This document shows, one piece after another, positions 2,750-59,690 of a stretch of DNA of 64,000 nucleotides. Position numbers and translations under genes: made by a program. Origin of the DNA: an uncultured bacterium (lineage in GTDB: Bacteria > Patescibacteriota > Minisyncoccia > Phycocordibacterales > CAIRYW01); the NCBI GenBank assembly GCA_963766885.1, contig CAVYBO010000002.1, positions 175,141 through 239,140 of the forward strand. Reading direction: 5' to 3'. The notes under the pieces are model-generated. The model was not told the origin of the DNA. It worked only from the letters and a program-made list of their open reading frames with translations, and did not search any database. Within the stretch, counting starts at the first letter, position 1, and every line of letters begins with the position of its first letter.

Positions 2750-2815
2750 TAGTAATATTTTAAGATGAATACAAAAATATAGCTACTCATACATATCCAC
2801 TGCTTAGAACAAAAG

Positions 2816-3343: not shown

Positions 3344-3465
3344 GACCTTAATTGTATCAGAAAAAATAGTTCGCGAGAACGAGCCTGGAGGCGCGGCGGA
3401 GCTGAAGAGTAAAAAATTCAGCAGAATTTTTTACATCGAAGTTTGAGTGAACTATTTTTTCTGGA

Positions 3466-5952
3466 TTATAGGCAAATCACGGATGCCAAAGAGTCCCCGT
3501 CGCGGAGCCGCATCACGCGCACACCTTGAGTATCCCTGCCTAAGTTTGGAATTTCTGAAAGCGAACATCGGATAACCTGGCTTTTTTTGGAAATCGCCAC
3601 AGCTTCTTCAACTTCCGCAGTTACAATATGAGCAGAAATCAATGAGCCGATTTTATCTGTAATTTTGATTGTTTTGATTCCCGAGCCGCCGCGGTTTTGG
3701 ATTTTGTATTCATTGATTGAAGTCTTTTTGCCATAACCCTTGGAAGACACCACAAAAACTTCTGCGTCTTTGCTATCTTTTTTGATTGCATCACTCCCGA
3801 CAACACTTACTCCTTTATCAAGTTTTATGACACGTACCCCGCCAGCAGCCCTGCCCATTTCGCGAACGCTCTTTTCCTCAAATCGGATTGACTGTCCGTC
3901 GCTTGAAACAACCATCACGCTGTCGCCTTTTTCTACAAAAAGAGCCGACACAAGTTCGTCACCAGCATCCAAGCGGATTGCAATGATTCCGCTGCGGCGC
4001 ACGTCATGAAAACTGTCTGCTGAAACTCTTTTGCCTGTGCCGTTTTTTGTAACAAGCATCATTGAAAGATTGCTACCCTTTTTGATATCTTTTGGCATTG
4101 GCAAAATTGAAGTGACTTTTTCGTCGCTTGAAAGAGTCAGGAAGTTCATTATTGATTTGCCTTTTGTAGCGCGCTTGCCTTCAGGGATTTCGTACATCTT
4201 GATTTGGTAAACTTTTCCGCGGTCGGTAAAGAATAAGAGGTCGCTATGATTTGTAGCCGTGACGAGGTGTGTTATGAAATCTTCTTCTTTTGTATCCAAA
4301 TCCACAACTCCAACTCCGCCGCGCTTTTGCTTGCGATATTCTTCAGGATCAGTTCGTTTGATGTATCCGCCAGCGGTGTAAACCAAAACACTTTCATCGT
4401 CCGGAACCAAATCTTCCATTGAAAAAGATTTCGCTTCGTGAGCAAAAACCTTTGTTCTTCTTTCGTCACCGAATTTTTCTTTGATTTCTTGGGTCTCAGT
4501 TTTTATTATCGCAGGAATTCGCTTTGGATTTTCCAAAATATCTTTGAGATCTTTGATCAAAACTCTTATCGCGTCCAATTCATCTTCAATCTTTTTCCTC
4601 TCTAAACCAGAGAGTTTTTGCAACCTCATTTCAAGAATTGCAATAGCTTGACGTTCAGAGAATTTAAAAGTTTTCATCAAACCTTCGCGCGCTTCGTCTA
4701 CGTTTTTGGACTTCTTGATCAGTTTGATAATTTCATCAATGTGATCAAGGGCTTTTTTTAAACCAAAAAGAATATGCTCTCGATCTAAGGCTTTGTTTAG
4801 ATCAAATTCCGTGCGTCTTTTGATAACTTCCCTTCTGTGCAAAATAAAAGATTCAAGAATTGATTTGACAGCCAAAGTCCTTGGAATGCCGTCAACAAGG
4901 GCGACAACGTTAAAGTGAAACGGCTCTTCAAGTCGAGTGTGCTTGTAGAGATAATTTAAAACCGCCTGCGGATGACTGCTTTTTTTCAGTTCAATTACTA
5001 TTCGGATATCTTTGGCAGATTCATCACGAATGTCTCTGATGCCATCGATTTTTTTATCACGGACCATATCAGCGATTGTGATGATAAGTTCAGCTTTGTT
5101 TACGCGATATGGAAGCGAAGTAACAATAATTGAAGAACCTGTTTTGTCTTCAACTATTTCAGCTTCTCCACGCACCGTGACACTTCCGCGTCCAGTGGTG
5201 TAAGCCGCTGCCAAATCTTTTTTGCCAAAAATCATTCCGCCGGTTGGAAAGTCAGGCGCTTTAATAAATTGAAGTAAATCTTCTGAAGTCGCGTCTTTGT
5301 TGTCAACTAAATATATTGTTGCATCGCAAATCTCTCGGAGATTGTGCGGAGGAATATTTGTGGCCATTCCCACAGCAATGCCAAGCGTGCCGTTTAACAA
5401 AAGATTCGGCACAGCTGTCGGCAAAACTGCTGGCTCTTTGCGAGTATTTTCATAGTTCGGTCTCCAATCCACGGACTGCTTTTCAATATCGCGAATCATT
5501 TCAAGAGCAATCCTAGACATTTTGGCTTCTGTGTATCTGTCTGCGGCAGGAGGATCGCCGTCAATGGATCCAAAGTTTCCTTGCCCGATTGCCAGCGGAT
5601 AACGCATTGAAAAATCCTGGGCAAGTTTTACCAAGGCTTCATAGGCCGCGACTGTGCCGTGCGGATGATAGTTACCAGTTACGTCTCCAATAATTTTGGA
5701 GCTCTTTCTTGTTTTGCCGCCAGGATTTAATCCGAGCTCATACATTGTATATAGGATCCTTCGGTGAACCGGTTTGAGGCCGTCGCGAACATCTGGAAGA
5801 GCGCGATCTGTGATAACAGACATGGCGTAGTCAATGTAGCTCTCGCGCATTTCGGAAACAATGTTTTGGTCAATTACGTTTTTTACATCAACAAGAGCAA
5901 TTGGATTTTGACCCTCTTCCGGATTTTCTTTTTTATTTTTTTTGTCTGGCAT
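3466..5952 (-). CDS. gyrA: DNA gyrase subunit A
   Basis: [28 protein letters not shown]-terminal signature and full-length C-terminal beta-pinwheel repeats. Confidence 0.95.
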
Positions 5953-5954
5953 TT

Positions 5955-6311
5955 TTAATTTTGTCTTGTCGTACTTGCCTCAATTGTAGTTGTTGCAGTT
6001 GAGGTGGATTGGATTTGCGCTGTTTGATTTTCTTGAACTGTGGTTGATGAAGTTGTAGACGCAACCTGAAAATAACTTTTCAAATTATTCATCTGTCCTG
6101 AAAACTGATCTGAATATGTGGAAATGTTTTTCTGAAATCCGCTCCAAATACTTGATCTTGCGTCTGACGTTCTATCAAGCTCGCTCTTTGAATCTTGAAT
6201 AAAAAAATACAGCCACGTGCCAAAAATCAAGACTGTGATTATAGCAGAAAAAATAATCGCCAGCTTCTTTTTTTGATCATTAGGCACGTTGTCTAAAAAG
6301 TTTGAAGACAT
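5955..6311 (-). CDS. hypothetical membrane-anchored Ser/Thr-rich protein
   Basis: N-terminal TM helix, low-complexity C-terminus; stop/start coupled to gyrA. Confidence 0.4.
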
Positions 6312-6329
6312 TTCTTGAAAATTAAGACC

Positions 6330-6935
6330 TTAAATAAACACCACGGAATTGTTTTTACCTTCAAGATCTTTTCTCTTGAGCGTTAATTTGTCAGTTTCTT
6401 CAGGCTTGGATCCAACTTCTTTGGCAAACTGCTTTTGATCCGAAAGTTCTCCGATTGGAATGATAAGCTTTGGCTCTAAAAAGACAGCGAGCTTGGCCGC
6501 TTGCGCAGGATTCAAAACTCCTTTACCTAGATGAACAATCAAAATATCAATTTCATTCAGCGCCTCGAGCGCTTCTTCAGACAATTTTTCTTCATCTAGT
6601 CCACCAAGATGCATCACGTTCAATCCATCCATCAATATTGCATAAATTGTGTTTATTCTTTCCTTACCTCCATAATTGCTTTTTGAAATAAAGCCCTTAA
6701 CAAAAACTCCTTTGACTTCATATTCACCAGGACCGGAAATAACAAACGGCTCACGTTCTCCAAAACCCAATTCTGAAACGCCATTAAAATCAGCATCATT
6801 CAAGGACAAAAGCGCCACATCCGCGCCAAATTTGCCGCCTTTTAGCTTTGAGTTTTTGGCAGGAGGGTTGATACCTAAAATAGTGTCCCCTGCCTGAATC
6901 TTCAATTCAAAATCACCCGCTCTTGTAATAATCAT
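6330..6935 (-). CDS. MBL-fold metal-dependent hydrolase (UPF0173-like)
   Basis: Pattern and length consistent with small beta-lactamase-fold hydrolases; weak motif support. Confidence 0.45.
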   Translation of the reverse strand: MIITRAGDFELKIQAGDTILGINPPAKNSKLKGGKFGADVALLSLNDADFNGVSELGFGEREPFVISGPGEYEVKGVFVKGFISKSNYGGKERINTIYAILMDGLNVMHLGGLDEEKLSEEALEALNEIDILIVHLGKGVLNPAQAAKLAVFLEPKLIIPIGELSDQKQFAKEVGSKPEETDKLTLKRKDLEGKNNSVVFI

Positions 6936-6993
6936 TTGTTAATTATAGCACAAAACAGATATTTTTTCATTAATAAATTTCAGAAATATCTCC

Positions 6994-7413
6994 TTATTCA
7001 GAAGTTTCTACAAAACCATTTTTACCAATTAAAAATCTCATTTGATTAGTACTCCCTTTAGGACCAACGCCTGGAGGAAAATTCATTTCTAGATAATAAG
7101 TAGAATTATTTATGTTAGCTGTAAAACCAAATTTGTATAATTGATTCCATCCTTGACTCTCTAAAAAAGAAGTCGTACTAGCAACATTCACCTCTTTATC
7201 AGATACGCAATCGTATATCTCATTTGAAAAAGGAAAATACTCTAAGTTACCGCAATTCATTCCTATTGTTTTCATTTCATTAATCGTTTGCGAAAAATTG
7301 TCTTCTACTATCAAATATTCAACGATGTATATAAAGCAAAAAACTAAAACGATTCCGCCAATCAAAGATAAAAAGTTTTCTTGCTTCTTGCTCCGGCTTC
7401 CTATATTTTTCAT
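6994..7413 (-). CDS. hypothetical protein with N-terminal TM anchor
   Basis: ORF with hydrophobic N-terminus; no recognisable motif. Confidence 0.35.
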   Translation of the reverse strand: MKNIGSRSKKQENFLSLIGGIVLVFCFIYIVEYLIVEDNFSQTINEMKTIGMNCGNLEYFPFSNEIYDCVSDKEVNVASTTSFLESQGWNQLYKFGFTANINNSTYYLEMNFPPGVGPKGSTNQMRFLIGKNGFVETSE

Positions 7414-7447
7414 ATATTAATTATACTCTATATTTATAAAATAATTG

Positions 7448-7477
7448 TTGCATTTTAGCTTCTGATACGTATATAAT
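7448..7477 (+). promoter_or_regulatory. sigma70-like promoter (TTGCAT-18 bp-TATAAT) for the downstream small RNA candidate
   Basis: -35 TTGCAT at 7448..7453 and -10 TATAAT at 7472..7477 with an 18-bp spacer. Predicted TSS about 7483, coinciding with the 5' closing stem of the structured element. Confidence 0.4.
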
Positions 7478-7482
7478 AAATG

Positions 7483-7570
7483 TATGCCTGTGGGCGCAAG
7501 CCCCGTTCAGCTAAGGAATTCCTAAGCCGAAGGCAGGCATAACAAAGATACCGCCTCTGGCGGTGTTTTT
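7483..7570 (+). ncRNA. candidate structured small RNA (~88 nt) with intrinsic terminator
   Basis: 8-bp closing stem tatgcctg(7483..7490)/caggcata(7534..7541) enclosing a GNRA-capped hairpin (gggc-GCAA-gccc) and a second hairpin around the aggaattcct palindrome. Followed by terminator accgcc-tctg-ggcggt + TTTTT (7550..7570). No + strand CDS follows. Confidence 0.35.
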
Positions 7571-7571
7571 G

Positions 7572-8039
7572 TTACTCGTCTTCTATTCCTTCGCTGAACA
7601 ATTTTTGATTTCCATTCTTCCTTTTTGAATAAAGCATCACACTCCAAAAAGTAATATTTCCGTCGCCAACTCTTCTTAACACTATTCTAACTTTTACTCT
7701 CTTTTCTCCAATTATTGCCACAAGACCCCAGTATTCAACTTCTTTCATTGGCGTAGCTCCATCTCTTGCTGACTTTTTACCGATTGGAGTGAGTAATTTT
7801 CTATATTCTTGAATTGTTGAAGATTTTCTTATAAGTTCCAAACCCAAAGGCAAAAGGCTGAATTTGAAAAGCTGTTCTTTTTTATCTCTCTCCCTCCTTG
7901 CTGAAAATTGCAGATGATGAAATCCATCGGAGTTTAAAATTACAGTAGTTTTAAAGTAAGGGTTGTAGATCTCCCTCTGAGCAGTAAAGAGTGCCTTCGC
8001 TTTTTCTTTTTGAATATCAAAATGGTTTCCGATCTCCAT
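7572..8039 (-). CDS. hypothetical protein
   Basis: 155-aa basic protein with no recognisable motif. Confidence 0.4.
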   Translation of the reverse strand: MEIGNHFDIQKEKAKALFTAQREIYNPYFKTTVILNSDGFHHLQFSARRERDKKEQLFKFSLLPLGLELIRKSSTIQEYRKLLTPIGKKSARDGATPMKEVEYWGLVAIIGEKRVKVRIVLRRVGDGNITFWSVMLYSKRKNGNQKLFSEGIEDE

Positions 8040-46715: not shown

Positions 46716-46866
46716 CTCCGCAAGCCGGACTACCGACAATACCAACGCCATCTGCTTGATAATCTGCTTCGTTGATTAAAATATTCCGAGGATTGAAAAA
46801 GTGATCCTTGACCACATCGCTATATAGCCAATCTTCCACATCACATGTCAGATTTTTTATTTTCAT
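46426..46866 (-). CDS. iscU: Fe-S cluster assembly scaffold IscU/NifU-like
   Basis: GSPACGDMM, TFGCASAIASTS, KYHCSVL conserved Cys motifs. True start may be an internal Met. Confidence 0.85.
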   Translation of the reverse strand: MKIKNLTCDVEDWLYSDVVKDHFFNPRNILINEADYQADGVGIVGSPACGDMMIVWIRVDKKTKKISECKWRTFGCASAIASTSMMSVMATENSGMTVDRAKRLTPESIIDRLGGLPDRKYHCSVLGHEALREAIEDYENSDEKRN

Positions 46867-48062
46867 ATTTTTACTGTTAATGCTGATAATTTTCTTAATC
46901 TTTTTACAACACCCGTCAAAACATTCATCACCGAATCAATTTCTTCTCGAGTGCTATATTTACCCAATGAAAATCTCAAACTGCCGTGACAGAGATTTGT
47001 ATCTTGGCCTATAGCAAGCAGAACATGCGAAGGCTTGAGATCATAGGTAGAGCAAGCTGAACCGGTCGATGCTTCAATTCCGAATTTATCAAGCATCAGA
47101 AGAATTGACTCGCCTTCAATGTCTGGAATGGAAATATGAACATTATTAGGCAGCCTTATTTGATGATGTCCGTTTAAGCAAGCGCCAGGAATTTCATTTA
47201 GAAGTCTTTCAATAAAATAATCACGGAGGGCTGTAAGCCTCTCTGATTCTTTTTCTCTGGCATTATCAACTTTTTTGAGTGCCTCGCTAAATCCAACGAT
47301 GAGAGGAACACTCTCAGTGCCCGCCCGAAGATGCATTTCTTGTTCGCCTCCCCAAATTATTGGCTCTATTTTCATACTTGTCCTTTTATAAAGAATACCT
47401 ACCGCTTTGGGGCCATATATTTTTGATCCATTAACAGTCATGAGATCAACACCCGAATCTTCCACATCTAAAGAAAGAAACCCTGTCGCTTGGCAAGCAT
47501 CTGTATGAATAAGTGGTAAACCCCCATTTCGCCTTATTTTTCTTATGGCGCCGGATAACTCCTTTATCGGCTGAATAGTGCCAATCTCATTATTGGCATA
47601 CATAACAGAAATAAGAATAGTAGAGTCATCAACAAGCTTTATACATTCTTTAACATCAATTCTGCCGTCTTTTGCTACAGGTAACAGGCTCACTCTAAAT
47701 CCCTCCTTTTCAAGTTCTCTGGCAGGCTCAAGAACCGCCTTATGTTCTATACTCGAAATAATAATGTGATTTCCATAGGCACGATTTGCTCTGGCTACTC
47801 CAAGAATAGCCAGATTATCGGATTCAGTTCCGGAACCCGTAAAAATAATTTCTCCAGGCAAACAATTTAAAATTTTTGCTACCTCAAACCTCGCTTTTCT
47901 TATGGCCTGTCCTGCCAGTCGGCCGCTTCTGTGCATTGAAGACGGGTTTCCATATTTGGAATCAAAATATGGAAGCATTTTTTGTAGAATTTCTGGATCA
48001 GTCGGAGTAGTAGCGGCATAATCCATATATATTCTTTTATCTGATTCCGCAGTATTGTACAT
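46863..48062 (-). CDS. iscS: cysteine desulfurase
   Basis: Class V aminotransferase fold; SIEHKAV PLP-Lys region and SGSACS active-site Cys loop. Confidence 0.9.
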   Translation of the reverse strand: MYNTAESDKRIYMDYAATTPTDPEILQKMLPYFDSKYGNPSSMHRSGRLAGQAIRKARFEVAKILNCLPGEIIFTGSGTESDNLAILGVARANRAYGNHIIISSIEHKAVLEPARELEKEGFRVSLLPVAKDGRIDVKECIKLVDDSTILISVMYANNEIGTIQPIKELSGAIRKIRRNGGLPLIHTDACQATGFLSLDVEDSGVDLMTVNGSKIYGPKAVGILYKRTSMKIEPIIWGGEQEMHLRAGTESVPLIVGFSEALKKVDNAREKESERLTALRDYFIERLLNEIPGACLNGHHQIRLPNNVHISIPDIEGESILLMLDKFGIEASTGSACSTYDLKPSHVLLAIGQDTNLCHGSLRFSLGKYSTREEIDSVMNVLTGVVKRLRKLSALTVKI

Positions 48063-48723
48063 GTTTTTTTAATGAACGCTGAAAAATTTTAAATTCTTCA
48101 TCACTATAAGTTACTTTTCTTCGGAACTGAGGATTGAGAAGTTTTGTTGGGATAAATTTCTGAAGATAGTATTTTTTGGCACCATGAATTTGCCTGCCGA
48201 TTTCTTCTATATCTTTCTCAGAAAGAAGTGATTTAATTACAGTCGTCCTAAACTCATACTCAATTTTTGATGACATCAAAAGGTTGATACTTTTTTGTAT
48301 TGATTCCACATCAACGGGCCGCGCTACAGTTTGGCTGTATTTGGACATTGGCGATTTAATATCCATAGCAACATAATCAACAAGATTTTTATTGATGGCT
48401 TTTTTCAACATTTCAAAATTAGTTCCGTTTGAATCAAGCTTTACTAGAAATCCGAGATCTTTAACTTTTTTCATAAAATCCAAAAGATCATCATGAATAG
48501 TTGGCTCTCCTCCTGTTATTACAATCCCGTCAAGAATCTTTTTTCTTTTTTTGAGAAAATCAATTATTTCCTGTTCGGAAAATCTAATCTCTACTGTTTC
48601 ATCAACAAGCTCCGGATTGTGGCAATAAGGACATCTGAAATTGCAACCGATTGTATAAACCATGCAGGCGATTTTGCCGGGGTAATCAATAAGGGTAAAT
48701 TTTTCAAATCCTCCAAAAACCAT
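48037..48723 (-). CDS. nrdG: anaerobic ribonucleoside-triphosphate reductase activating protein (radical SAM)
   Basis: CNFRCPYCHNPE radical-SAM CxxxCxxC motif; immediately downstream of nrdD. Start set at an internal Met. Confidence 0.75.
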   Translation of the reverse strand: MVFGGFEKFTLIDYPGKIACMVYTIGCNFRCPYCHNPELVDETVEIRFSEQEIIDFLKKRKKILDGIVITGGEPTIHDDLLDFMKKVKDLGFLVKLDSNGTNFEMLKKAINKNLVDYVAMDIKSPMSKYSQTVARPVDVESIQKSINLLMSSKIEYEFRTTVIKSLLSEKDIEEIGRQIHGAKKYYLQKFIPTKLLNPQFRRKVTYSDEEFKIFQRSLKKHVQYCGIR

Positions 48724-48724
48724 T

Positions 48725-50890
48725 CTATGATTTGATGACCTCTTCAGCTTCGACCTTTGAGTTAACTGTGGGAGCATATGTTTTGCGTAGATCATACTCT
48801 GCTTGTTTACCAACATTCCATTGACTGACTGGGCGCAAATAGCCGACAATTCTCGAATAGACTTCGCATTCATTTTGACAGCTTGGGCACAAAAAATGCT
48901 CCCCTGTTATATAGCCGTGGGAACGGCACACACTAAATGTTGGCGTTAGAGTGAAATACGGCAGATGATAATTTTCGCAAATTTTCTTGACAAGTTGAGG
49001 CACCGCTTGAGCATCAGCAATCCTTTCTCCAAGAAACAAATGAATAACTGTTCCTCCTGTATATTTGGTTTGGAGAGGGTCTTGAATATTTAAGGTTTCG
49101 ACTATGTCTTCTGTGTAATGAACTGGAAGATGAGAGGAGTTTGTGTAGAATGGTTCAGCTCCCTTTTTATATTCCTCTTCATTAGCAACGATAATTTCCG
49201 GATATTGTTTTTTATCTTTCAAAGCCAAGCGATAAGCTGTGCCTTCAGCGGGAGTTGCTTCAAGATTGTAAAGATTTCCTGTTTCTTTTTGGTAAGAGAT
49301 TAATCGCTTTCGCATAAAATCAAGGACTTCTTTAGCAAAAGCTTGGCCATTTTCGCTTCCAATATCTTTTCCCAAAAGATTCAAAGCTGCTTCATTCATA
49401 CCAACAAGACCGATAGTTGAAAAGTGATTGTACCAATATTTACCAAATCCGGTTTTGATATTACGTAAATAGAACTTTGTATATGGGTAAAGATTGGCAT
49501 CAGTTAACCGCTCCAAAACTTTTCGCTTAATTTCCAAGCTCTCTTTAGCGATATCCATTTTCAAAGCGAGATTGCTAAAGAATTCTGATTTTCCTTTTTT
49601 CTTGGAAACATAAGCAAGCTTAGGCAGATTTATAGTGACTACTCCAACCGAGCCGGTTAAAGCGTTAGCTCCGAAAAGCCCCCCTCCACGTCGATCAAGC
49701 TCTTCAAGGTCAAGTCTCAGCCGACAACACATCGATCTAGTATCTTCAGGCTTCATATCTGAGTTTATGAAATTACTGAAATATGGCACACCGTACTTGG
49801 CGGTAATCTCCCATAATCCTTTCAGATTTTGGTTACCCCAATCAAAATCTCGAGTAACATTGACTGTTGGAATAGGAAAAGTAAAAACTCTTCCTGCAGC
49901 ATCGCCTTCAGCCATTACTTCAAAGAAAGCTTTATTAAAGAGATCCATTTCGTGCTGAAAGTCTCCATATTTTTCTTCTTTGATTTTTCCTCCTATAACG
50001 ACTCCCTGATTCTTGAAATTCGGCGACGGTGTCAGATCAAGAGTAACGTTTGAAAAAGGGGTCTGAAAGCCTACGCGTGTCGGAACATTCATATTAAAGA
50101 TAAACTCTTGGAGACCCTGTTTAACTTCCTTAAAAGATAATTTATCGAATCGAATAAACGGGGCAAGCAGCGTGTCAAAGTTTGAAAATGCAATAGCGCC
50201 AGCCGCTTCTCCTTGCAAGGTGTACATAAAATTAACGACCTGTCCCAAGGCAGTACGAAAATGCTTCGGTGGAGCAGATTCAATCTTGTCAGGTGTGCCA
50301 CGAAATCCCTCAAGTAAAAGATCCATCAAGTCCCAGCCCACACAATAAATAGAAAGGGTTCCTAAATCGTGAAGATGCAAATCTCCATTTTCGTAAGCAA
50401 CTCTGATTTCCTTTGGATAAATTTTGTTAAGCCAGTAAATTTTGCTCTGTTCTGAAAAAATATAATTATTAAGACCCTGAAGCGAGTAACCCATATTGCT
50501 ATTCTCCTTAACCTGCCAATCAAGCTTGTCTAAATAGCTATCAATCAAATTAAGCGACACAGTTGTGGCAAAAGCCCTCATTTCAGCGTGCTGCCTGCGG
50601 TAAATGATGTATGCCTTGGCGGTTTGTTTAAAGCGCGATTTCAGCAGTACCTTTTCCACCAAATCCTGAACAAATTCAACATTCAAATCTTGTTTTAGAG
50701 GTTTGTTTTTGAGATCAAAAATAATTTTTTTGCCAAGTTCATTGGCCTCTTTTTTACCAAACTCACCAGTGGCAATGGCAGCCTTTTCAATAGCTCTGAT
50801 TATTTTCTTCTTTTTAAAAATTTCTTCCCTGCCGTCGCGCTTTATTATTTTTTTAAGCATAGTTTGAGCGTTGGATTGATAATAATTCAA
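48725..50890 (-). CDS. nrdD: anaerobic ribonucleoside-triphosphate reductase (class III)
   Basis: N-terminal ATP-cone, large class III barrel, C-terminal CPSCQNEC zinc site and glycyl-radical region RIVGY. Confidence 0.9.
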   Translation of the reverse strand: MNYYQSNAQTMLKKIIKRDGREEIFKKKKIIRAIEKAAIATGEFGKKEANELGKKIIFDLKNKPLKQDLNVEFVQDLVEKVLLKSRFKQTAKAYIIYRRQHAEMRAFATTVSLNLIDSYLDKLDWQVKENSNMGYSLQGLNNYIFSEQSKIYWLNKIYPKEIRVAYENGDLHLHDLGTLSIYCVGWDLMDLLLEGFRGTPDKIESAPPKHFRTALGQVVNFMYTLQGEAAGAIAFSNFDTLLAPFIRFDKLSFKEVKQGLQEFIFNMNVPTRVGFQTPFSNVTLDLTPSPNFKNQGVVIGGKIKEEKYGDFQHEMDLFNKAFFEVMAEGDAAGRVFTFPIPTVNVTRDFDWGNQNLKGLWEITAKYGVPYFSNFINSDMKPEDTRSMCCRLRLDLEELDRRGGGLFGANALTGSVGVVTINLPKLAYVSKKKGKSEFFSNLALKMDIAKESLEIKRKVLERLTDANLYPYTKFYLRNIKTGFGKYWYNHFSTIGLVGMNEAALNLLGKDIGSENGQAFAKEVLDFMRKRLISYQKETGNLYNLEATPAEGTAYRLALKDKKQYPEIIVANEEEYKKGAEPFYTNSSHLPVHYTEDIVETLNIQDPLQTKYTGGTVIHLFLGERIADAQAVPQLVKKICENYHLPYFTLTPTFSVCRSHGYITGEHFLCPSCQNECEVYSRIVGYLRPVSQWNVGKQAEYDLRKTYAPTVNSKVEAEEVIKS

Positions 50891-51018: not shown

Positions 51019-51387
51019 TTAGACCACCATTCTACGGTGTCTTAGGTTGTGCAATATCTTACAAGGCTCAACGATCCTAGGATCAACGATTTTATAGAAA
51101 ATATTTAGCCCGTGTCGGCGAGTTTTTACCAGTCCGTTGTGTCGAAGAAGTGCCAAGTGTTGGGAAAGATTAGCTTTTGATATTTTGGTGATTTTCAGAA
51201 GCTCATCAACACCCACTTCCCTTTTCTTCAAAATATTAAGCACCTCAAGGCGTTTTGGGTTGGCCAATATCTTGTAGATATCTGCATTTTTATTATAAGC
51301 TTCTTGCGGTAGTGGTGATTTCATAATTGCGATACTTAGTAATTTAAGTATATCAGTCTCAAGATATAATTCAAATCGTGTCTTCAA
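51019..51387 (-). CDS. ArsR/SmtB-family winged-helix transcriptional regulator
   Basis: ILANPKRLEVLNILKK…ISKANLSQHLALLRHNGLV HTH signature. Confidence 0.7.
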   Translation of the reverse strand: MKTRFELYLETDILKLLSIAIMKSPLPQEAYNKNADIYKILANPKRLEVLNILKKREVGVDELLKITKISKANLSQHLALLRHNGLVKTRRHGLNIFYKIVDPRIVEPCKILHNLRHRRMVV

Positions 51388-52615
51388 TTTCCATCAATCT
51401 GTTGTATTTAGAGACCCTTTCTCCCCTTACCAATGACCCTGATTTTATATAATCACACGATAGCCCGACGGCAAGATCTGCAATAAATGTGTCCGTTGTC
51501 TCACCCGAACGATGCGAGACAAAAGGTGTCCAACCTTGTTTTTTTGTCATTTCAACCGCTCTTATTGTTTCAGTGAGCGTTCCTATTTGGTTGAGTTTGA
51601 TAAGAACAGAATTAATAGCTTCCTTTTCAGTTGCTTTTTGAATTCTCTTTATGTTTGTGACGGTCAAATCATCCCCTACTATTTTTATTTTATCTCCAAG
51701 AGTTCTATTCATTTCTGAAAAACCCTCCCAATCATCTTCAGCCAGCCCATCTTCAATTGAGATAATCGGATAAGTGTTAACCATCTTTTCATACCAATCA
51801 ATTAAGCCAGAAGTATTTATACTTCTCTTATGCCCATCAATTCTGAGCCAATACGCGTCGTCATTATAAAAAGTTGAGGCCGCCGCATCTATTCCTATTT
51901 TTATTTTTTCAGTTGAATATCCAGAATCTTTAATCGCCCGAACTATAAGTTCTAGAGCTTCTTCATTTGAAGAAAGTTTAGGAGCGAATCCCCCCTCGTC
52001 TCCAACACTTACAGCATATCCTTTTGACATCAAAATTTTTCTTAGTGCTGAAATTACTTCTGAGGCTGCACGTACTTTCTCCTTAAAAGAATCGAAATTA
52101 ATTGGACCAATCATAAATTCTTGAATATCAAGCCCACTGTCGGAATGTTTGCCGCCGTTTATAATATTAAACATCGGCTGAGGAAGTTTAAAAGTTTTAT
52201 TTTCTGCCAAATTACCAATGTATTCGTATAGTTCAATCTTTTCTTCTCTGGCTTTAGCCCGAGCAAACGAGAGCGACACAGAAAGAATAGTGTTGGCACC
52301 AAGTCTTGATTTATTTTCTGTTCCATCGAGATCAATTAACGCTTTATCCAGTGTATTCTGATTAAACTCATTATTTTGAATACATAAGTTTATTTCATCA
52401 TTAACATTTTTTACTGCTATAAGTACACCAAACCCGTTGTATCGCTTTTTGTCGCCGTCTCTTAGTTCTAGAGCCTCGTGAATACCCGTGCTTGCTCCTG
52501 ACGGCACTGATGCAACTTCTGTAATTCCACTTGAGAGTTCACACATAGTTTCTATCGTCGGATTGCCTCTTGAATCAATAATTTCTCTTGCTTTAACTGA
52601 TTTTATTTTTGTCAT
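51371..52615 (-). CDS. eno: enolase
   Basis: Full-length enolase signatures (SRGNPTIE…, IKLNQIGTLTET, SHRSGETED-like). Confidence 0.95.
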   Translation of the reverse strand: MTKIKSVKAREIIDSRGNPTIETMCELSSGITEVASVPSGASTGIHEALELRDGDKKRYNGFGVLIAVKNVNDEINLCIQNNEFNQNTLDKALIDLDGTENKSRLGANTILSVSLSFARAKAREEKIELYEYIGNLAENKTFKLPQPMFNIINGGKHSDSGLDIQEFMIGPINFDSFKEKVRAASEVISALRKILMSKGYAVSVGDEGGFAPKLSSNEEALELIVRAIKDSGYSTEKIKIGIDAAASTFYNDDAYWLRIDGHKRSINTSGLIDWYEKMVNTYPIISIEDGLAEDDWEGFSEMNRTLGDKIKIVGDDLTVTNIKRIQKATEKEAINSVLIKLNQIGTLTETIRAVEMTKKQGWTPFVSHRSGETTDTFIADLAVGLSCDYIKSGSLVRGERVSKYNRLMEIEDTI

Positions 52616-53424
52616 TATAAAAGATGAAAGTTATCAATTATGTGTTTTTCGGCTTCAACCAATATTTTTTCCATCATCTTCACTGCTTCAACAGGATATT
52701 TACCTTTTGTTGTTTCTTCTGAGAGCATTACAGCATCAGAACCTTGAATAATAGCGTTAGCCACATCAGTAACCTCCGCCCTAGTTGGGGTGGGATTTTC
52801 TACCATCGACAAAAGCATTTGTGTGGCAGTAATGACCGGTTTTCCAGCTTCTTTACACTTCTTAATTATATCCGCTTGCACAAAAGGTATTTGCTCAAGA
52901 GGTACTTCGTTTCCCAGATCGCCACGAGCTACCATAACAGCGTCTGTCACTTCAATAATCTGGTTAATTTTTTCAACACCAACGGCACGTTCTATTTTTG
53001 CAACTATTTTTTGGGTACCAGAACATTCTTTTATTATTTTTCTACAAAGATTTATGTCTTCTGGACCGCCAACAAATGAAACCGCTATATAATCAACATT
53101 TTGCTCAGCTGCGAATTTTATAAATTCTTTGTCATTGTCAGTAATTGCAGAAACTGCGCTGTGATTATATGTATGCTCCGCACTTTCCTGAATTCTTGGC
53201 CCAGGTAGATCAATTAAGATAAGAATCTTTCGTCCGCATTCTTTTTCAAGCTCTCGGATAAGTTTAATTTGACGCACCCTTTCATCAAGATGACTCCAGG
53301 AAAAGTTAAACCTGACCACATCAAGCTCGTGTTCGATCATCGCCTTAAGAGTTTCCCTATTATCAGATGCCGGGCCTATAGTCGCTACTATTTGTGCTTT
53401 TGAATTTGTTTGAAAATTTGTCAT
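52615..53424 (-). CDS. truncated pyruvate kinase: A-domain barrel only, lacking B (lid) and C-terminal domains
   Basis: [69 protein letters not shown] are all PK-specific. Only 269 aa, and the K+/substrate loop jumps directly to the second barrel half. Confidence 0.55.
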
Positions 53425-54065
53425 GCGTTTACTTTGGATTCCACTTTTTTAATCTGCTTTTTAATCATTTTTCCTTGACTATCAACATCATATATTAAAA
53501 CGGCACCGAAAAGCATCTCAACATTCTTTATTTTCTCATCAGATATATTTTCAATGTATTTCATCAAGGCTCTGATCGCATTGCCATGAGAGACAATCAA
53601 AACATTTTTATCGTTATTAAGTAGCGGGACAATATGCTCTTGGTAATACGGCACGGCTCTTTCATACACCATTTTCAGAGTCTCCCCGTTCGGTACCGGG
53701 CAATCCCAGTCTCTTCTTATGCAATCAAATTTCTCTTCACCGAACAGCTTTTCCATTTCCCATTTATTTTTTCCCGTGTAATCTCCGTAATCTCTTTCAT
53801 TCAAAGCGGCAGAAAATTCCACAGGCACATCAAGGTCTTTGGCTTTTTCCTCCATTCCAAGAAGTGTTTCGTACGAGCGAATTTGAGCCGAAGCAAAAGC
53901 TTGATCAATGTGAATTACCTCGATCAACTCTCCCATTTCTTCAGATTTTCTGAATCCATATTCGGTCAAATGCACATCTCGGCTTCCAGTCCATTTTCCA
54001 AGTTTGTTCCATTCCGATTCATGATGTCTTGCGATTATAAGCTTCCCTGTTTTTTTAAATTGCAT
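53421..54065 (-). CDS. gpmA: 2,3-bisphosphoglycerate-dependent phosphoglycerate mutase
   Basis: RHHESEWN (RHGxxxWN) catalytic motif. Confidence 0.8.
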
Positions 54066-54066
54066 T

Positions 54067-55041
54067 TTATTTGTTTATAATATTTTTCGGCATCTTTCCG
54101 TCAAAAAAATCAATAATGTTTTGAGCGGCAAGCTCTGCCATCTGATTGCGCGTTTCGATGCTTGCAGATGCGATATGAGGAGTTAGAATCACATTCTGAA
54201 GTTTGATCAGACCTTTGGAAATATTTGGCTCAAATTCAAAAACATCCAAAGCCGCTCCGGCAATAATTTCTTCTCTTAGACATTTTTCCAAGGCAACTTC
54301 ATCAATAACAGGACCGCGGGAAGTGTTGATTAGAAAGCTGGTTGGCTTCATCATTTTTAATCTGGCTTCATTGATAAGATGCTTCGTTGAATCCATAAGA
54401 GGAACATGAAGTGAAATTACATCAGCTCTTTGCAAAACTTCTTCTGGTGAAACGCAATACGTTGCTCCGCAATTTTCTTCAATTCTGCTATTTCTAACAA
54501 CATCTGTATAAATAATCCTCATACCCAGTCCTTGGGCGTAATGTGCAACCCTTTCTCCGATTCTACCAGCACCGATGAGACCCAGTGTTTTGCCAATAAT
54601 ATCTGTACCTATAAAATTCATCGGCGCCCAGCCTTTGTACTTTCCATCCCGAACAAATTGGTCTGCCTCAACGATTCGCCCTGCAAGAGCAAGCATTAAA
54701 GCAATGGCGTGCTCTGCAACAGATTCGGAAGTTTGCTCTGCCGGAGCGTTTGTTATTACAATTCCTCTTTTTTTGGCTTCTACGAGATCAATATTGTCAA
54801 AACCAGTTGCGTAGTTAGCATATATTTTTACACTAGGTGCCACATCAAAAACAGAAGCATCAATTTTGTCAGTCAACAAAGAAAGCACTCCGTCATAGTT
54901 TCCGTTTTTTAAATTCTTGATCAGATCTCTTTGGCTCAAGATTTCATCTTTTGGATATATTTCCAACTGATATCCCTTATCAGCAAGCATCTTGATTCCA
55001 ATGTCTGGAATCTTTCTTGTTACAAAAATTTTTTTGGTCAT
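54067..55041 (-). CDS. D-isomer-specific 2-hydroxyacid dehydrogenase (glycerate/hydroxypyruvate reductase-like)
   Basis: GLIGAGRIGERVA NAD site and catalytic His region (PHIASAS). Confidence 0.8.
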   Translation of the reverse strand: MTKKIFVTRKIPDIGIKMLADKGYQLEIYPKDEILSQRDLIKNLKNGNYDGVLSLLTDKIDASVFDVAPSVKIYANYATGFDNIDLVEAKKRGIVITNAPAEQTSESVAEHAIALMLALAGRIVEADQFVRDGKYKGWAPMNFIGTDIIGKTLGLIGAGRIGERVAHYAQGLGMRIIYTDVVRNSRIEENCGATYCVSPEEVLQRADVISLHVPLMDSTKHLINEARLKMMKPTSFLINTSRGPVIDEVALEKCLREEIIAGAALDVFEFEPNISKGLIKLQNVILTPHIASASIETRNQMAELAAQNIIDFFDGKMPKNIINK

Positions 55042-55051
55042 TTATTATATA

Positions 55052-56185
55052 TTAACAATTATCAGCTCCAATTGCTTGGCTTATGTTAGTAAATCCATCT
55101 CTTTTGAGAAGTTTAGCCAAACCCTGGTTTATCTCACTTATAACCTGCGGGCCTTCAAATATCATTCCTGTAATCATCTGGATAAGCGTCGCACCGAGGC
55201 GGATTTTTTTATATGCATCTTCAGCAGTAAATACTCCACCGCATCCTACAAGCACAAACCTTTTCCCTTCTCTCTTATAAATATATGCAAGCATATTATC
55301 AGCAAGATCCTGAACGACTTTCCCGCTCATTCCACCCACATCAGGAATTGAACTGTCTTTGATTTTCGGGTTGTCCTTTTTCTTAGTGAGATTGGCGCAA
55401 ATAATTCCTTGGATACGATGGTTTCGCGCAACATCAAGAATAGCGTCAAGCTGTGAATGATTGAGGTCCGGAGACATTTTTATAAAAACAGGTTTTTTGG
55501 TTGGAATCTCATCCAGAATATCAAAAAGGTAATCTAGTTTATGCGGCGCAACAAAAGACTGCCCACCTATAGCATTTGGACAGCTAATATTTACCGTAAT
55601 GTAGTTGGCTACAGGTTCCATGATTCTGAAAGCTTTTGCAAAATCTTTGATACCATCTTTAAGCACAAGATTCTCTTTGCAATTAGTCATAGCTATTGAG
55701 ATACCTATTGGGATATTGAATTTTTTATCTTTAAGCTTTTGCAATATTGCTTCGCAGCCATCATTTTTAAGACCGTAATAAACTACAAGGCTTTTTGATT
55801 TTGGTAGACGCCAAAGCCGAGGTTTTGGATTGCCCTCATATTTTTCTCCCGTGATTGATCCAACTTCAGAGAAACCAAAGCCAACATCAGCAATAATGTC
55901 AGTAAGTTCTGCATTTTTGTCAAAACCGGCGGAAAGCCCTATTGGATTTTTAAAATTTATACCGAGGACTTCTTGTTCCAATACAGGATTGTTATAACCA
56001 AATAATCCTCGCGTTAATTTCTGGCAAAAAGAATATTTACCCATCCGCGCACCAAGTTTTGTCATTCTGTCGTGTATTGTTTCCGGATCATTCAGGAAAA
56101 AAACAGGTTTGAGGATACCAGAATATAATACATGATTTATCTTGTTTCTATAGTATGTGGCTTTTTCATTCATATATAGTTTCAA
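55052..56185 (-). CDS. pyrD: dihydroorotate dehydrogenase with class-2-like N-terminal extension but Cys catalytic base (NISCPN)
   Basis: GLSAGFDKNAE, GFGFSEVGSIT, PRLWRL, NISCPN, GCGGV motifs; N-terminal ~40-aa helical extension. Confidence 0.75.
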   Translation of the reverse strand: MKLYMNEKATYYRNKINHVLYSGILKPVFFLNDPETIHDRMTKLGARMGKYSFCQKLTRGLFGYNNPVLEQEVLGINFKNPIGLSAGFDKNAELTDIIADVGFGFSEVGSITGEKYEGNPKPRLWRLPKSKSLVVYYGLKNDGCEAILQKLKDKKFNIPIGISIAMTNCKENLVLKDGIKDFAKAFRIMEPVANYITVNISCPNAIGGQSFVAPHKLDYLFDILDEIPTKKPVFIKMSPDLNHSQLDAILDVARNHRIQGIICANLTKKKDNPKIKDSSIPDVGGMSGKVVQDLADNMLAYIYKREGKRFVLVGCGGVFTAEDAYKKIRLGATLIQMITGMIFEGPQVISEINQGLAKLLKRDGFTNISQAIGADNC

Positions 56186-56434: not shown

Positions 56435-57241
56435 TCAGTGTGAGAAAAACGCCTCCGTATAAATTTTTTCTTCAGAGATTTTAAAAGATCGCAAATCACG
56501 CCAAATATCTCGAGTAAAAGATATAGAGCCGCAAATCAGAAATTCAGTATCTGAATCAATCGGAATACTTTCAATAATTTTTTGTCCGGTAATTCTACCT
56601 TCAAAAATTTTCTCTGAAACCTTTTCTCTTGTTATAAAATAATTCACCTTAAAATTTTTATACTGATTTTGAAGTTCATCAAAAGTTTTTCTAAAAATTA
56701 TATCCTGAAGCGTTTTGTTGCTATAAAAAAGAGTCATTTTTCTTAATGGGTTATTCAAAAGAGCTGAAATAATCATGCTCCTGAAAGGAGCGATACCAAT
56801 GCCGGCAGCAACCATAACCAAATGGCTTTTTTCAGATTCGCTGTAGAAAAATCCATATGGCAAAGAAGCTATGATTCTATCTCCTGTTTTTTTCGCTACA
56901 AGACTATTTGAAAACTCACCAATAGCTTTGACTGTAATACTAATTAATCTTTCCTTTGGAGAGCTGGATATGCTGTATGCTTTGCCCTCTGGCGTGTTGG
57001 TCTCAGGAAAATAGACAGTTATGAATTGCCCAGGAACATAGTGCGGGCAAACTTTATTCCAATTAATAAGTCTTAACGTGGAAACCCCCTTTGCTTCCAT
57101 TATATTGCTTTGCACCATGTATGTTTCTTTAATTTCTCTTTTCATCGCTGTTTTCGTAATCTTCAATTGCTTCTCGTAAAGCCTCATGCCCCAAGACCGA
57201 GCAGTGATATTTCCTGTCTGGAAGGCCACCAAGGCGATCAA
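56435..57241 (-). CDS. FNR-like FAD/NAD(P)-binding oxidoreductase, copy 2 (identical protein), directly upstream of pyrD
   Basis: Identical 268-aa translation to 45732..46538. Confidence 0.6.
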   Translation of the reverse strand: MIALVAFQTGNITARSWGMRLYEKQLKITKTAMKREIKETYMVQSNIMEAKGVSTLRLINWNKVCPHYVPGQFITVYFPETNTPEGKAYSISSSPKERLISITVKAIGEFSNSLVAKKTGDRIIASLPYGFFYSESEKSHLVMVAAGIGIAPFRSMIISALLNNPLRKMTLFYSNKTLQDIIFRKTFDELQNQYKNFKVNYFITREKVSEKIFEGRITGQKIIESIPIDSDTEFLICGSISFTRDIWRDLRSFKISEEKIYTEAFFSH

Positions 57242-57478: not shown

Positions 57479-57733
57479 ATGAAAAGACAAAAAATAGCCC
57501 CTGAAATAAAGGAGCAGATTATTAACAGAATCAAGAATGATGGTATCAGTGTAGTCCAAGCAGCCAAAGAGCATGGCATCAGCGATGTCACCATATATGG
57601 GTGGATAGCCAAGAAAACCAAAGGTCAGCCAACTCTTTCAGAGGTAATTAAACTCAAGCGAGAAAATGCTCAACTGCTTCAGTTAGTTGGAGAAATTACT
57701 CTAAAGCTCTCAGAAACCCAAAAAAAGAATTGA
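57479..57733 (+). CDS. IS3-family transposase OrfA (HTH)
   Basis: HTH plus leucine-zipper-like C-terminus; ends at the AAAAAAG frameshift motif (about 57717..57724). Confidence 0.8.
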   Translation: MKRQKIAPEIKEQIINRIKNDGISVVQAAKEHGISDVTIYGWIAKKTKGQPTLSEVIKLKRENAQLLQLVGEITLKLSETQKKN

Positions 57734-58551
57734 AAGAAAATAGTGAGACTCCCAAAACTCTTCGGGCCAGAGAGCTTGGGATCTCCCGCAGCACTCTCTA
57801 CTACAAACCAAAGAAACCTGACAAAGATTGGGAACTAAAATGTCAGATTGAAGAAGTTCTCAGAGAGCATCCTTCATATGGTTCTCCACGCATCGCCCTT
57901 GCCCTCAAAAGAAACCACAAACCGATTGAACGAGTGATGAAACTTTTCGGTATCAAGGCATATCGCAGACGTGGTAGAAGATGGAAAAAATCGAAGAATA
58001 TCAAAGTTATTTACCCAAATCTTCTTTTGACTAATTATCCCCAATATGAAAATCATATCTGGGTGACAGACTTCACCCGCATACCCTTTGAAAACAAAAC
58101 CATCTATGTGGCTACAGTCGAAGATTTGTTCACCAGAAAAATTGTTGGGTTGTCAGTATACACCACCCATGCTGTTCAATTGGTTTTAGCATCATTCATG
58201 TCGGCTCTTCAAAATAATCCCAGACCAAAAATTTTCCACTCTGACAACGGCAGTGAATACAACTCGGAGGTGTTCATTCAGGCGCTGCAGACCGTCGGGG
58301 TATTGATTTCTCGTTCTGCTCCAGGTTGTCCGTGGGAGAATGGGTACCAGGAATCTTTCTACGACAAATTCAAAATTGATCTTGGGGATTCTTCCCGATT
58401 CAAAACATTGGGAGAGCTGGTGTTCGCTATTTACCAAACAATTTACATTTACAACAACACCAGGATTCATACCGCCCTCAAAATGTCACCCGTGCAATTT
58501 GCACTTTCGTCGGCTCGAGAATACAATTCAGCTAACAAGGTTAGTGTCTGA
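57730..58551 (+). CDS. IS3-family transposase OrfB (rve integrase core, DDE)
   Basis: HIWVTDFT (D), HSDNGSEY (D), PWENGYQESF (E) integrase-core motifs. Confidence 0.85.
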   Translation: MKENSETPKTLRARELGISRSTLYYKPKKPDKDWELKCQIEEVLREHPSYGSPRIALALKRNHKPIERVMKLFGIKAYRRRGRRWKKSKNIKVIYPNLLLTNYPQYENHIWVTDFTRIPFENKTIYVATVEDLFTRKIVGLSVYTTHAVQLVLASFMSALQNNPRPKIFHSDNGSEYNSEVFIQALQTVGVLISRSAPGCPWENGYQESFYDKFKIDLGDSSRFKTLGELVFAIYQTIYIYNNTRIHTALKMSPVQFALSSAREYNSANKVSV

Positions 58552-58616: not shown

Positions 58617-59690
58617 ATGAATGCAAATCCGCAGCTTGCTGTATCAGTACAGACAGGTCTGGTCCGCTGGTTTGACCGCCGCCTCGATAAGAGGTTCGGC
58701 TTCATTACCTTGGACTGGAAAAACCCAAAGGAGGAAGACATTTTCTTCCACCTCAACGACAACGCCATCGTCTACGGAGACGCTGGTCAACCATACTTCC
58801 GGACTGACCCGGCGAACAAACCGGCTAGGCTCCCTGAAGAGGGTGACCTGGTGGTGTTTGAAACTCAGCATCCTCCACGTGGTCCGAAGGCCAAGCCTTG
58901 GGCTTACCTTCATGACTACGAGGCGATCGTGCGCGGTATTTCTCCGCAGCCGCTGTACCGACTGGTCGGGCACTACCATATTTCAGACGGCGGCAAGGAG
59001 AAAAAAGGTCCTCGGATTATCTTCTGGGGCGGCCTGTCTCTCGACTCGCTGTATCTCCGGTATCCGGACTGTCGAGCGGATCTCGCAGCCATCAAGTGGT
59101 GCTTCCGGTTGCCCTGCTCGAAAGTCGAAGGTATCCATCTGGAAGTTCTGCCCGCGGAAGCGGACAAGTACGACGACTCGGCGTGGATGCCTTACGAAAT
59201 TCCGGAAGATGCGGACGACGATGTCGTTCTCATTACAGAACCGAAGCTCAAGATCACCGCTGAGTACGGCCACGGTGGTCACGAAACCGAGTACGTCATC
59301 CGACTCTGGGAGGAAGAACCGGGACACCCCGGCCATTACCTCAAGTGTCTCGACTTCCCGAAGGAGTTTTCCGACGAGTTCGAGATCGTGGCCAGAGCCG
59401 AGCCGAAGCGGTGGGCAGTATATCCCCGCGGTGTTCGGATCGAGGTGTACTTCACGGATCAGCTCCGGACCGAAGAGCCGGTTCCCTACGGGACACCGGG
59501 TTTCGTTAGCTTCTCTTCCAATCATTTCGAATGCAAGCGTCTCATTGAGACGACTCTGCAGCGGCTGAAAACGAAGCTCGCCAAGCTTCGCAAGGAGAAG
59601 ATCCTGGACATCTGGGCCGACGATTTAACTTCGCCCCTCATCAAGGAGCGCAAGCTTACGTTCCATGTGAACGAGGTCGTCGTGGAGTAA
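58617..59690 (+). CDS. cold-shock-domain (CSD) N-terminal fusion protein with a ~280-aa C-terminal domain of unknown function; G+C-rich foreign gene
   Basis: N-terminus GLVRWFDRRLDKRFGFITLDW…DIFFHLND matches the CSD RNP1/RNP2-like pattern. The rest is unrecognised. Abrupt rise in G+C and GC3 relative to the host. Confidence 0.45.
   Translation: MNANPQLAVSVQTGLVRWFDRRLDKRFGFITLDWKNPKEEDIFFHLNDNAIVYGDAGQPYFRTDPANKPARLPEEGDLVVFETQHPPRGPKAKPWAYLHDYEAIVRGISPQPLYRLVGHYHISDGGKEKKGPRIIFWGGLSLDSLYLRYPDCRADLAAIKWCFRLPCSKVEGIHLEVLPAEADKYDDSAWMPYEIPEDADDDVVLITEPKLKITAEYGHGGHETEYVIRLWEEEPGHPGHYLKCLDFPKEFSDEFEIVARAEPKRWAVYPRGVRIEVYFTDQLRTEEPVPYGTPGFVSFSSNHFECKRLIETTLQRLKTKLAKLRKEKILDIWADDLTSPLIKERKLTFHVNEVVVE

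Follow-up and report, generated by a model that had tools for sequence, protein, structure and literature searches.

Can the catalytic barrel of pyruvate kinase (PK) do its work alone? The question is raised by a minus-strand open reading frame (ORF) in a stretch of 64,000 nucleotides from an uncultured bacterium of the phylum Patescibacteriota (contig CAVYBO010000002.1 of assembly GCA_963766885.1), called the 64-kb window below. In textbook PKs, the B domain, or lid, closes on the nucleotide with residues R119, K206 and D177, and the C domain is regulatory. A preliminary description of the ORF, made from the sequence alone, took it for a PK reduced to its A domain and left three options: a streamlined PK active without its lid, a PK-derived enzyme with altered activity, or a pseudogene. 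Here we report that the ORF, referred to as the short PK, encodes a complete A-domain barrel of the PK family (EC 2.7.1.40), without the B (lid) domain and without the C (allosteric and tetramerisation) domain. We consider it likely that the product is a genuine minimal PK, predicted to be unregulated and K+-independent and to function with the barrel alone.

52615..53424, minus strand: short PK, A-domain (beta/alpha)8 barrel only, 269 amino acids (PF00224, TIGR01064, AlphaFold2 model, Foldseek)

The ORF starts with ATG, encodes 269 amino acids and, as its translation confirms, carries all the PK motifs quoted in the preliminary description exactly as given there. The product matches the Pfam family PF00224 with an E-value of 6.9e-80 and 269 bits (cutoff 30). 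This match is split in two: an N-terminal stretch covers the beginning of the profile, residues 91-248 cover profile positions 171-328, and positions ~70-170, representing the B domain, are without counterpart. The match to the NCBIfam equivalog TIGR01064 has 324 bits, above the cutoff of 306.4; those to the subfamily models PRK05826, PRK06354 and PykF each stay under their own cutoff. No match to PF02887 (PK_C) was obtained in the Pfam scan. The best sequence matches of the short PK among PDB structures are all PKs. In the alignment with the Staphylococcus aureus enzyme (3t05), query residues 9-79 pair with chain residues 24-94 and query residues 91-259 with chain residues 188-356. The ~93 lid residues of 3t05 are reduced to about 11-12 and nothing follows the barrel, the C-terminus lying ~10 residues past alpha8. 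The gap in the PF00224 match, the missing PK_C domain and this alignment together bear out the A-domain-only architecture.

The same architecture is seen in an AlphaFold2 model built from 58 homologues (mean predicted local distance difference test score, pLDDT, 92.1; predicted template modelling score 0.90). The model contains eight strand/helix pairs forming the full (beta/alpha)8 barrel, from beta1 (11-15) through alpha8 (244-259). Its sole extra element is a small beta-hairpin with strands 77-79 and 84-86, placed between beta3 and alpha3, which is the usual insertion point of the B domain; pLDDT is lower here (76 for residues 81-90). The hairpin includes Arg77 (rabbit position 117), Gln79 (rabbit 119), a near-invariant His84 and an aromatic residue at 86. 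When the model was compared with the PDB by Foldseek, the best 50 matches were PKs only, with TMq of 0.86-0.92. The Pseudomonas aeruginosa PykA (6qxl_J) superimposes with a root-mean-square deviation (rmsd) of 1.5 A over 260 columns at 45% identity. Comparison of the predicted structure with canonical PKs, proposed in the preliminary description as a check, thus yields a full PK barrel without lid.

53152..53196, minus strand: beta-hairpin in place of the ~93-residue B domain, residues 77-91 of the short PK (E. coli PykF alignment, AlphaFold2 model)

With 269 amino acids against ~470 in normal PKs, the ORF invites a trivial explanation, namely that it is a pseudogene or a frameshifted or misassembled full-length pyk gene, or that it belongs to a different barrel family, for instance the HpcH/HpaI aldolases. 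We regard this explanation as effectively refuted. The stop codon of the preceding gene, gpmA, overlaps the start of the short PK gene (GCATGA / ATGA), and the stop codon of the latter overlaps the start of the enolase gene (TAATG); therefore, no adjacent frame is able to hold the missing domains and no space is left for further sequence. When seven PKs (full-length Patescibacteria PKs among them) served as tblastn queries against the 64-kb window, as isolated B domains, as isolated C domains and in their entirety, only the barrel itself was recovered, all else having E>0.1; neither remnants of B and C domains nor a second PK were found there. The codon overlaps and the barrel-only tblastn result together rule out a frameshift, split gene or assembly error, and the B and C domains are not encoded in adjacent frames, a possibility raised in the preliminary description. 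No pyruvate phosphate dikinase, phosphoenolpyruvate (PEP) synthase or second PK is present among the ten largest ORFs of the window, which encode gyrA, a tRNA synthetase, LepA, MurJ and similar proteins.

The HpcH/HpaI aldolase and citrate lyase beta family (PF03328) shares with the short PK a PEP/pyruvate-binding (beta/alpha)8 barrel, a similar size and the absence of a lid, and a weak match to it does exist (E=0.006). This match covers residues 90-170 only, and its 16.3 bits fall short of the cutoff of 25; the PK family scores 269 bits. The short PK differs from these aldolases in its PK motifs and PK-specific catalytic residues, and the 50 best fold matches are PKs throughout. An aldolase identity, including the better end-to-end alignment that the preliminary description had allowed for, is rejected.

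The pseudogene option fails for another reason, the conservation of the short form. The 120 best homologues in the database share the short, B-less form. They have 243-315 amino acids (63 of them exactly 267), except for three proteins of 464-471 amino acids in which a His_Phos_1 (gpmA) domain is fused to the barrel. Those that carry a name are assigned to Paceibacteria, Nomurabacteria, Taylorbacteria or the "Patescibacteria group". When a divergent member (locus L008) was taken as the query instead, the best 120 matches were a further set of short proteins of 235-285 amino acids, mostly labelled Kaiserbacteria. Some members in both lists are deposited as "hypothetical protein". The L008 metagenome-assembled genome (MAG) itself is labelled Saccharibacteria, and the closest named relatives of its short PK are from Kaiserbacteria; the label may be wrong. 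Residue counts were made on 230 short PKs that are 42-72% identical to the query. R38, N40, D72, K143, E145, D169, T201 and S235 are present in 230/230 each, S42, R77, H84 and E237 in 229/230 each, and Y or F occupies position 86 in 226/230. The catalytic residues are thus invariant in a form shared by more than 230 homologues of 255-290 amino acids, found in independent assemblies and hundreds of protein clusters, and a pseudogene is therefore excluded. The same counts point to purifying selection acting on the catalytic residues of the short family. The B-less form is accordingly conserved in related small genomes, as a comparison suggested in the preliminary description had sought to establish.

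The catalytic inventory of the short PK was drawn up by alignment to E. coli PykF and from there converted to rabbit numbering. Arg38, Asn40, Ser42 and Asp72 correspond to R72, N74, S76 and D112 of the phosphate and monovalent-cation site. Lys143, Glu145 and Asp169 correspond to K269, E271 and D295, which handle Mg2+ and the phosphoryl group. Thr201 corresponds to the proton donor T327, and Ser235 and Glu237 to S361 and E363. All PEP, divalent-metal and proton-transfer residues of the PK family are thus kept. Thr15 and Pro18 of the nucleotide-side loop are also retained in the short family, as is an aromatic residue or His at position 43.

The cation site is different. In PKs, Glu117 and Thr113 characterize K+-dependent enzymes and Lys117 and Leu113 K+-independent ones, in which the lysine takes the cation's place (PMC8835810, PMC4284704, PMC4374775); the full K+-independent signature is L113/Q114/K117 (PMC8835810, PMC4284704). 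In the short PK, E117 is replaced by Arg77 and T113 by Leu73, so the signature is present with Arg instead of Lys; the position equivalent to 114 is Pro, Ser or Ala in the short family, not Gln. The preliminary description had assigned K+ binding to the GPRIQ loop. This does not hold, because the loop has Arg in place of the Glu117 of K+-dependent PKs, and Gln in place of the Arg119 found in all B-containing PKs. Among the nearest B-containing relatives, K (88) or R (12) at 117 occurs together with L113 in 100/128, from which it follows that the short family descends from the K+-independent branch of PKs. In the K+-independent PK of Mycobacterium tuberculosis, the B domain is static on substrate binding and the flip-in of Lys117 gives the active conformation (PMC8835810). 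This branch seems to be the one in which lid closure is least important.

Four positions, Q11, W43, R77 and H84, set the A-only family apart from 200 lid-containing PKs. Two further candidates for family hallmarks were rejected, wholly or in part. The Glu of MLSEE, in place of Gly in MLSGE, is also present in 39/128 lid-containing relatives and does not qualify as a compensation for lid loss. Trp43 replaces His77, which borders the adenine pocket (PMC8835810); it is a hallmark only in part, since the 230 short PKs have 128 W and 99 H at this position and the Kaiserbacteria-type subclade keeps His.

The closest known systems are the K+-independent PKs, such as PykA of M. tuberculosis and of P. 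aeruginosa (6qxl). Their barrels are 45-50% identical to the short PK and superimpose with an rmsd of ~1.5 A; the PEP, Mg2+ and proton-donor residues, a positive residue at 117 and Leu113 are shared, and the reaction is presumably common to both. Unlike the short PK, they have a B lid (~93 residues) and a C domain (~125 residues). They carry Lys117 and Arg119, whereas the short PK has Arg at 117, has lost Arg119 and possesses a 12-residue hairpin with an invariant His; it also lacks the allosteric site and the C-C tetramer interface. Loss of one accessory domain has a precedent in C-domain-less PKs of ~340-350 amino acids (NCBIfam PRK06739, profile length 352), which have lost that whole domain and retained the lid, whereas the short family has lost both. 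A review of PKs mentions isozymes without C domain or with a duplicate C domain and does not mention the B domain (PMC10176505).

What does such a barrel do in the cell? The short PK gene belongs to a cluster of six minus-strand genes that are separated by at most 10 nt or overlap. The other five are:

55052..56185, minus strand: dihydroorotate dehydrogenase (DHODH)-family gene, 10 nt upstream of the cluster (PF01180, 2.4e-69)
54067..55041, minus strand: D-2-hydroxyacid dehydrogenase, glyoxylate/hydroxypyruvate-reductase-like (PF02826/PF00389)
53421..54065, minus strand: 2,3-bisphosphoglycerate-dependent phosphoglycerate mutase, gpmA-type, 214 amino acids (PF00300, 4.4e-35; TIGR01258, 157 bits, cutoff 81.7)
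51371..52615, minus strand: enolase, 414 amino acids (Enolase_N + Enolase_C, 1e-108)
51019..51387, minus strand: ArsR-family helix-turn-helix regulator, closing the cluster at its 3' end (PF01022, 8.2e-11)

Pfam and NCBIfam scans hence place the lower-glycolysis cluster of PK, enolase, gpmA and 2-hydroxyacid dehydrogenase, all four on the minus strand, where the preliminary description had put it. The dehydrogenase scores 365 bits against the glyoxylate reductase model NF009714, under its cutoff of 455, and its closest structures are glyoxylate/hydroxypyruvate reductases of Pyrococcus and Thermococcus (5aov, 2dbq; E ~1e-87). The transcription unit of the cluster probably begins with the DHODH-family gene. 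A promoter-like site is present at 56232-56203, although such sites are no commoner here than in shuffled sequence.

The block of dehydrogenase, gpmA, PK and enolase is also found in a complete Nomurabacteria genome of 808,221 bp (CP064958.1). At seven related A-only loci, the dehydrogenase adjoins the short PK in 7/7; enolase is present in 5/7 and gpmA in 5/7. At L008, a MOFRL-type glycerate kinase stands in for gpmA, in the order dehydrogenase, glycerate kinase, enolase and PK (2494-6804); at L007, the dehydrogenase is the only such partner beside the short PK. ArsR homologues flank the cluster at L004 and L006. At L006, a DHODH homologue (6567-7925) separates the short PK from gpmA, so DHODH is linked to the module there as well. 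Full-length and A+B PKs of Patescibacteria are situated differently: none of six loci has a dehydrogenase, gpmA, enolase or glycerate kinase neighbour, nor does the full-length PK on a Nomurabacteria scaffold of 800,830 bp.

Association with the pathway goes as far as gene fusion. In a library of representatives at 50% identity, the following fusions were found:

P0122: gpmA-PK fusion, lid-less barrel
P0123: PK-gpmA fusion, lid-less barrel
P0125: PK-enolase fusion, lid-less barrel
P0135: glycerate kinase-PK fusion, lid-less barrel
P0259: glycerate kinase-enolase-PK fusion, lid-less barrel

The short barrel has been fused repeatedly and independently to pathway enzymes, and it is therefore tied to the PEP made by enolase. 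Operon context and gene fusions make the streamlined, lid-less PK the best supported of the three options of the preliminary description. They have also to be considered in another light. The short PK might be a true kinase that needs a partner, enolase, gpmA or glycerate kinase, to cover its open barrel, either as a lid provided in trans or within a metabolon. This would account for the translational coupling and repeated fusion of these genes. It would agree with the start/stop overlaps with gpmA and enolase, with independent fusions to three different pathway enzymes, and with a partner set conserved at 7/7 loci and missing beside full-length Patescibacteria PKs. Yet PK and its partner are fused in either order (gpmA-PK and PK-gpmA; PK-enolase and enolase-PK), and the partners vary, which fits proximity or co-regulation better than a single dedicated contact surface resembling a lid. 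The neighbouring enolase (414 amino acids) and gpmA (214 amino acids) carry no extra domain, and the short PK of L007 has only the dehydrogenase beside it. We judge the need for a covering partner to be quite improbable.

The short PK is not the only natural PK without a lid. A neighbour-joining tree of 234 sequences, computed over 235 columns of the barrel, groups the 29 A-only sequences as a single clade with a bootstrap of only 28/100, and the monophyly of the A-only group is thus not firmly established. A single origin of all lid-less PKs was considered and rejected, because L022, P0178 and L032, and likewise the second of the two barrels in P0134, are placed elsewhere in the tree; the lid appears to have been lost several times independently. 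L022 (2661-4010, plus strand; from a Solirubrobacterales MAG) and P0178 (377 amino acids) are lid-less and keep the C domain; PKs of this type lie outside Patescibacteria and have no linker hairpin (DTDGPNDLDW). L032, from a CPR3 MAG, is a lid-less barrel of ~239 amino acids with no linker. These three resemble the short PK in being natural lid-less PKs with retained catalytic residues. They differ from it in that they fall outside the A-only clade, lack the His hairpin or any linker, and are not located beside enolase, gpmA or dehydrogenase. They appear to represent independent losses of the B domain. P0134 (691 amino acids) has, behind an A+B PK, a second barrel that is lid-less and has degenerate catalytic residues (HHRHEF..KDCGEQN). 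A+B PKs of ~340-350 amino acids without C domain were found on contigs labelled Saccharibacteria (L012, L057) and in the library of representatives. Other unusual architectures in that library are P0127 (1051 amino acids), with two tandem PK barrels and an adenylate kinase domain, and the tandem PKs P0132 (1280 amino acids) and P0156 (1147 amino acids).

Several points weigh against an active barrel-only kinase. R119 contacts the nucleotide's beta-phosphate, K206 the hydroxyl groups of the ribose and D177 a water molecule on the Mg of MgATP (PMC8835810). R119 is replaced by Gln79 in the short PK (Gln or Lys in the family), compared with Arg in 128/128 B-containing relatives, and K206 and D177 were deleted with the lid and have no counterpart. 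An open active site could, moreover, favour hydrolysis of PEP. Related Nomurabacteria and Paceibacterota contain a clade of full-length PKs of 471 amino acids. A Nomurabacteria contig of 808,221 bp has the short PK and another, of 800,830 bp, the full-length PK; among the best 120 matches per list, no contig is common to the short PK and the full-length Paceibacteria PK. The two forms may be alternatives, not companions. Finally, a lid-less version of E. coli PykF obtained by engineering (PK TIM+Reg; Sugrue et al. 2020, Eur Biophys J 49:761) is said to be only weakly active, although it reportedly does retain low activity. The short PK is like this construct in being a PK barrel minus the B domain. 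The construct was reportedly derived from a K+-dependent enzyme activated by fructose 1,6-bisphosphate and is said to have kept its C domain and tetramer; unlike it, the short PK is natural, also lacks the C domain and comes from the K+-independent branch. The construct is artificial, whereas evolution has given the short PK time to gain residues that compensate (R77, H84, Y/F86, W43).

The losses around the nucleotide site could mean that the short PK, though derived from PK, now catalyzes a different reaction on the same three-carbon substrates, using the intact PEP/Mg2+ site after canonical binding of ADP was lost. It might be a PEP phosphatase (PEP + H2O -> pyruvate + Pi), transfer the phosphoryl group to another acceptor, or catalyze oxaloacetate decarboxylation or enolisation. 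The substitution of R119 by Q or K, the deletion of K206 and D177 and the change of His77 to Trp in about half of the family all agree with this (roles of these residues in PMC8835810), as do the invariant PEP, Mg2+ and proton-donor residues, and an open site would admit water. On the other hand, Pro18, Thr15 and the aromatic residue or His at 43 have been retained, and the steady association with enolase, gpmA and glycerate kinase, fusions included, points to PEP in an energy-yielding pathway. A phosphatase would waste one of the few substrate-level ATPs of these fermenters. In the glycerate kinase-enolase-PK fusion it would turn glycerate catabolism into a net consumer of ATP, whereas a kinase would recycle the ADP; from this we infer that a kinase is to be preferred over a phosphatase. 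A changed reaction is, all in all, unlikely.

The barrel-only kinase, the reading that we prefer, could operate as follows. The short PK would convert PEP from the adjacent enolase to pyruvate and phosphorylate ADP or another nucleoside diphosphate with its barrel only. Arg77 (rabbit 117) would provide a positive charge in place of K+, as Lys117 does in K+-independent PKs, and would thereby make the enzyme K+-independent. Loss of the lid would be tolerable because the K+-independent branch reportedly reaches the active conformation without lid closure. Judging from sequence position and conservation, the hairpin with His84 and Tyr/Phe86 may lie on the rim of the active site, at the former hinge of the lid. 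Together with Trp/His43, at the adenine-pocket position of His77, it may partly replace the lost contacts of R119, K206 and D177. As there is no C domain, neither allosteric regulation nor a C-C tetramer interface would be expected, and the enzyme probably exists as a monomer or as an A-A dimer. The short PK would be the last step of a co-transcribed, in some relatives fused, module that leads from glycerate kinase or gpmA through enolase to PK and includes the glyoxylate/hydroxypyruvate-reductase-like dehydrogenase.

A bolder version is conceivable, which we hold to be doubtful. In it, the short PK is an efficient kinase whose mobile lid of 93 residues has been replaced by the 12-residue His/Tyr hairpin, or by docked enolase, gpmA or glycerate kinase in a channelled lower-glycolysis particle; a related version has the acceptor changed from ADP. 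If an efficient barrel-only kinase were true, lid closure and the allosteric tetramer would be dispensable for PK chemistry, and this would be the smallest natural PK.

Some further features of the window surround the cluster. Upstream of the DHODH-family gene, an FNR-like NAD-binding oxidoreductase is encoded at 56435-57241 (minus strand). Just downstream of the cluster, positions 46863-50890 (minus strand) encode the anaerobic ribonucleotide reductase NrdD with an ATP-cone and a radical S-adenosylmethionine (SAM) activase, and a cysteine desulfurase-like gene, read off the translation, lies near NrdD. NrdD and its activase are consistent with an anaerobic fermentative lifestyle. An IS3-type transposase directly adjoins the region of the metabolic cluster (57479-58551, plus strand); it is composed of an HTH_Tnp_1 orfA of 84 amino acids and an rve integrase-core orfB of 273 amino acids, whose start overlaps the end of orfA. 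Next to this element, the region 58617-59690 (plus strand) has a G+C content of ~0.50 against a background of ~0.38. Its ORF of 357 amino acids shows only a sub-threshold N-terminal match to a cold-shock domain and no tandem repeats. This region may have been acquired horizontally.

No description of a natural lid-less PK was found in targeted full-text literature searches that combined terms for PK truncation and lid with Patescibacteria, candidate phyla radiation (CPR) and Parcubacteria. The sequences of the short family have nonetheless been publicly available since about 2015, under the label "pyruvate kinase" or "hypothetical protein". The family is of interest to PK enzymologists and for metabolic reconstruction of CPR bacteria; it does not represent a system of a new kind. 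If active, an unregulated, K+-independent PK of 27-30 kDa could serve as a compact enzyme for ATP regeneration. As a large, conserved and natural family without B and C domains, it presents a ready test of what the PK barrel is capable of alone, and complements the single engineered E. coli construct. A CPR-wide metabolic survey found PK in about a third of genomes, called its distribution "highly patchy" and did not comment on architecture (PMC7304191). Because several members of the short family are deposited as "hypothetical protein", this patchiness may partly reflect annotation thresholds and not the absence of the PK step from these organisms.

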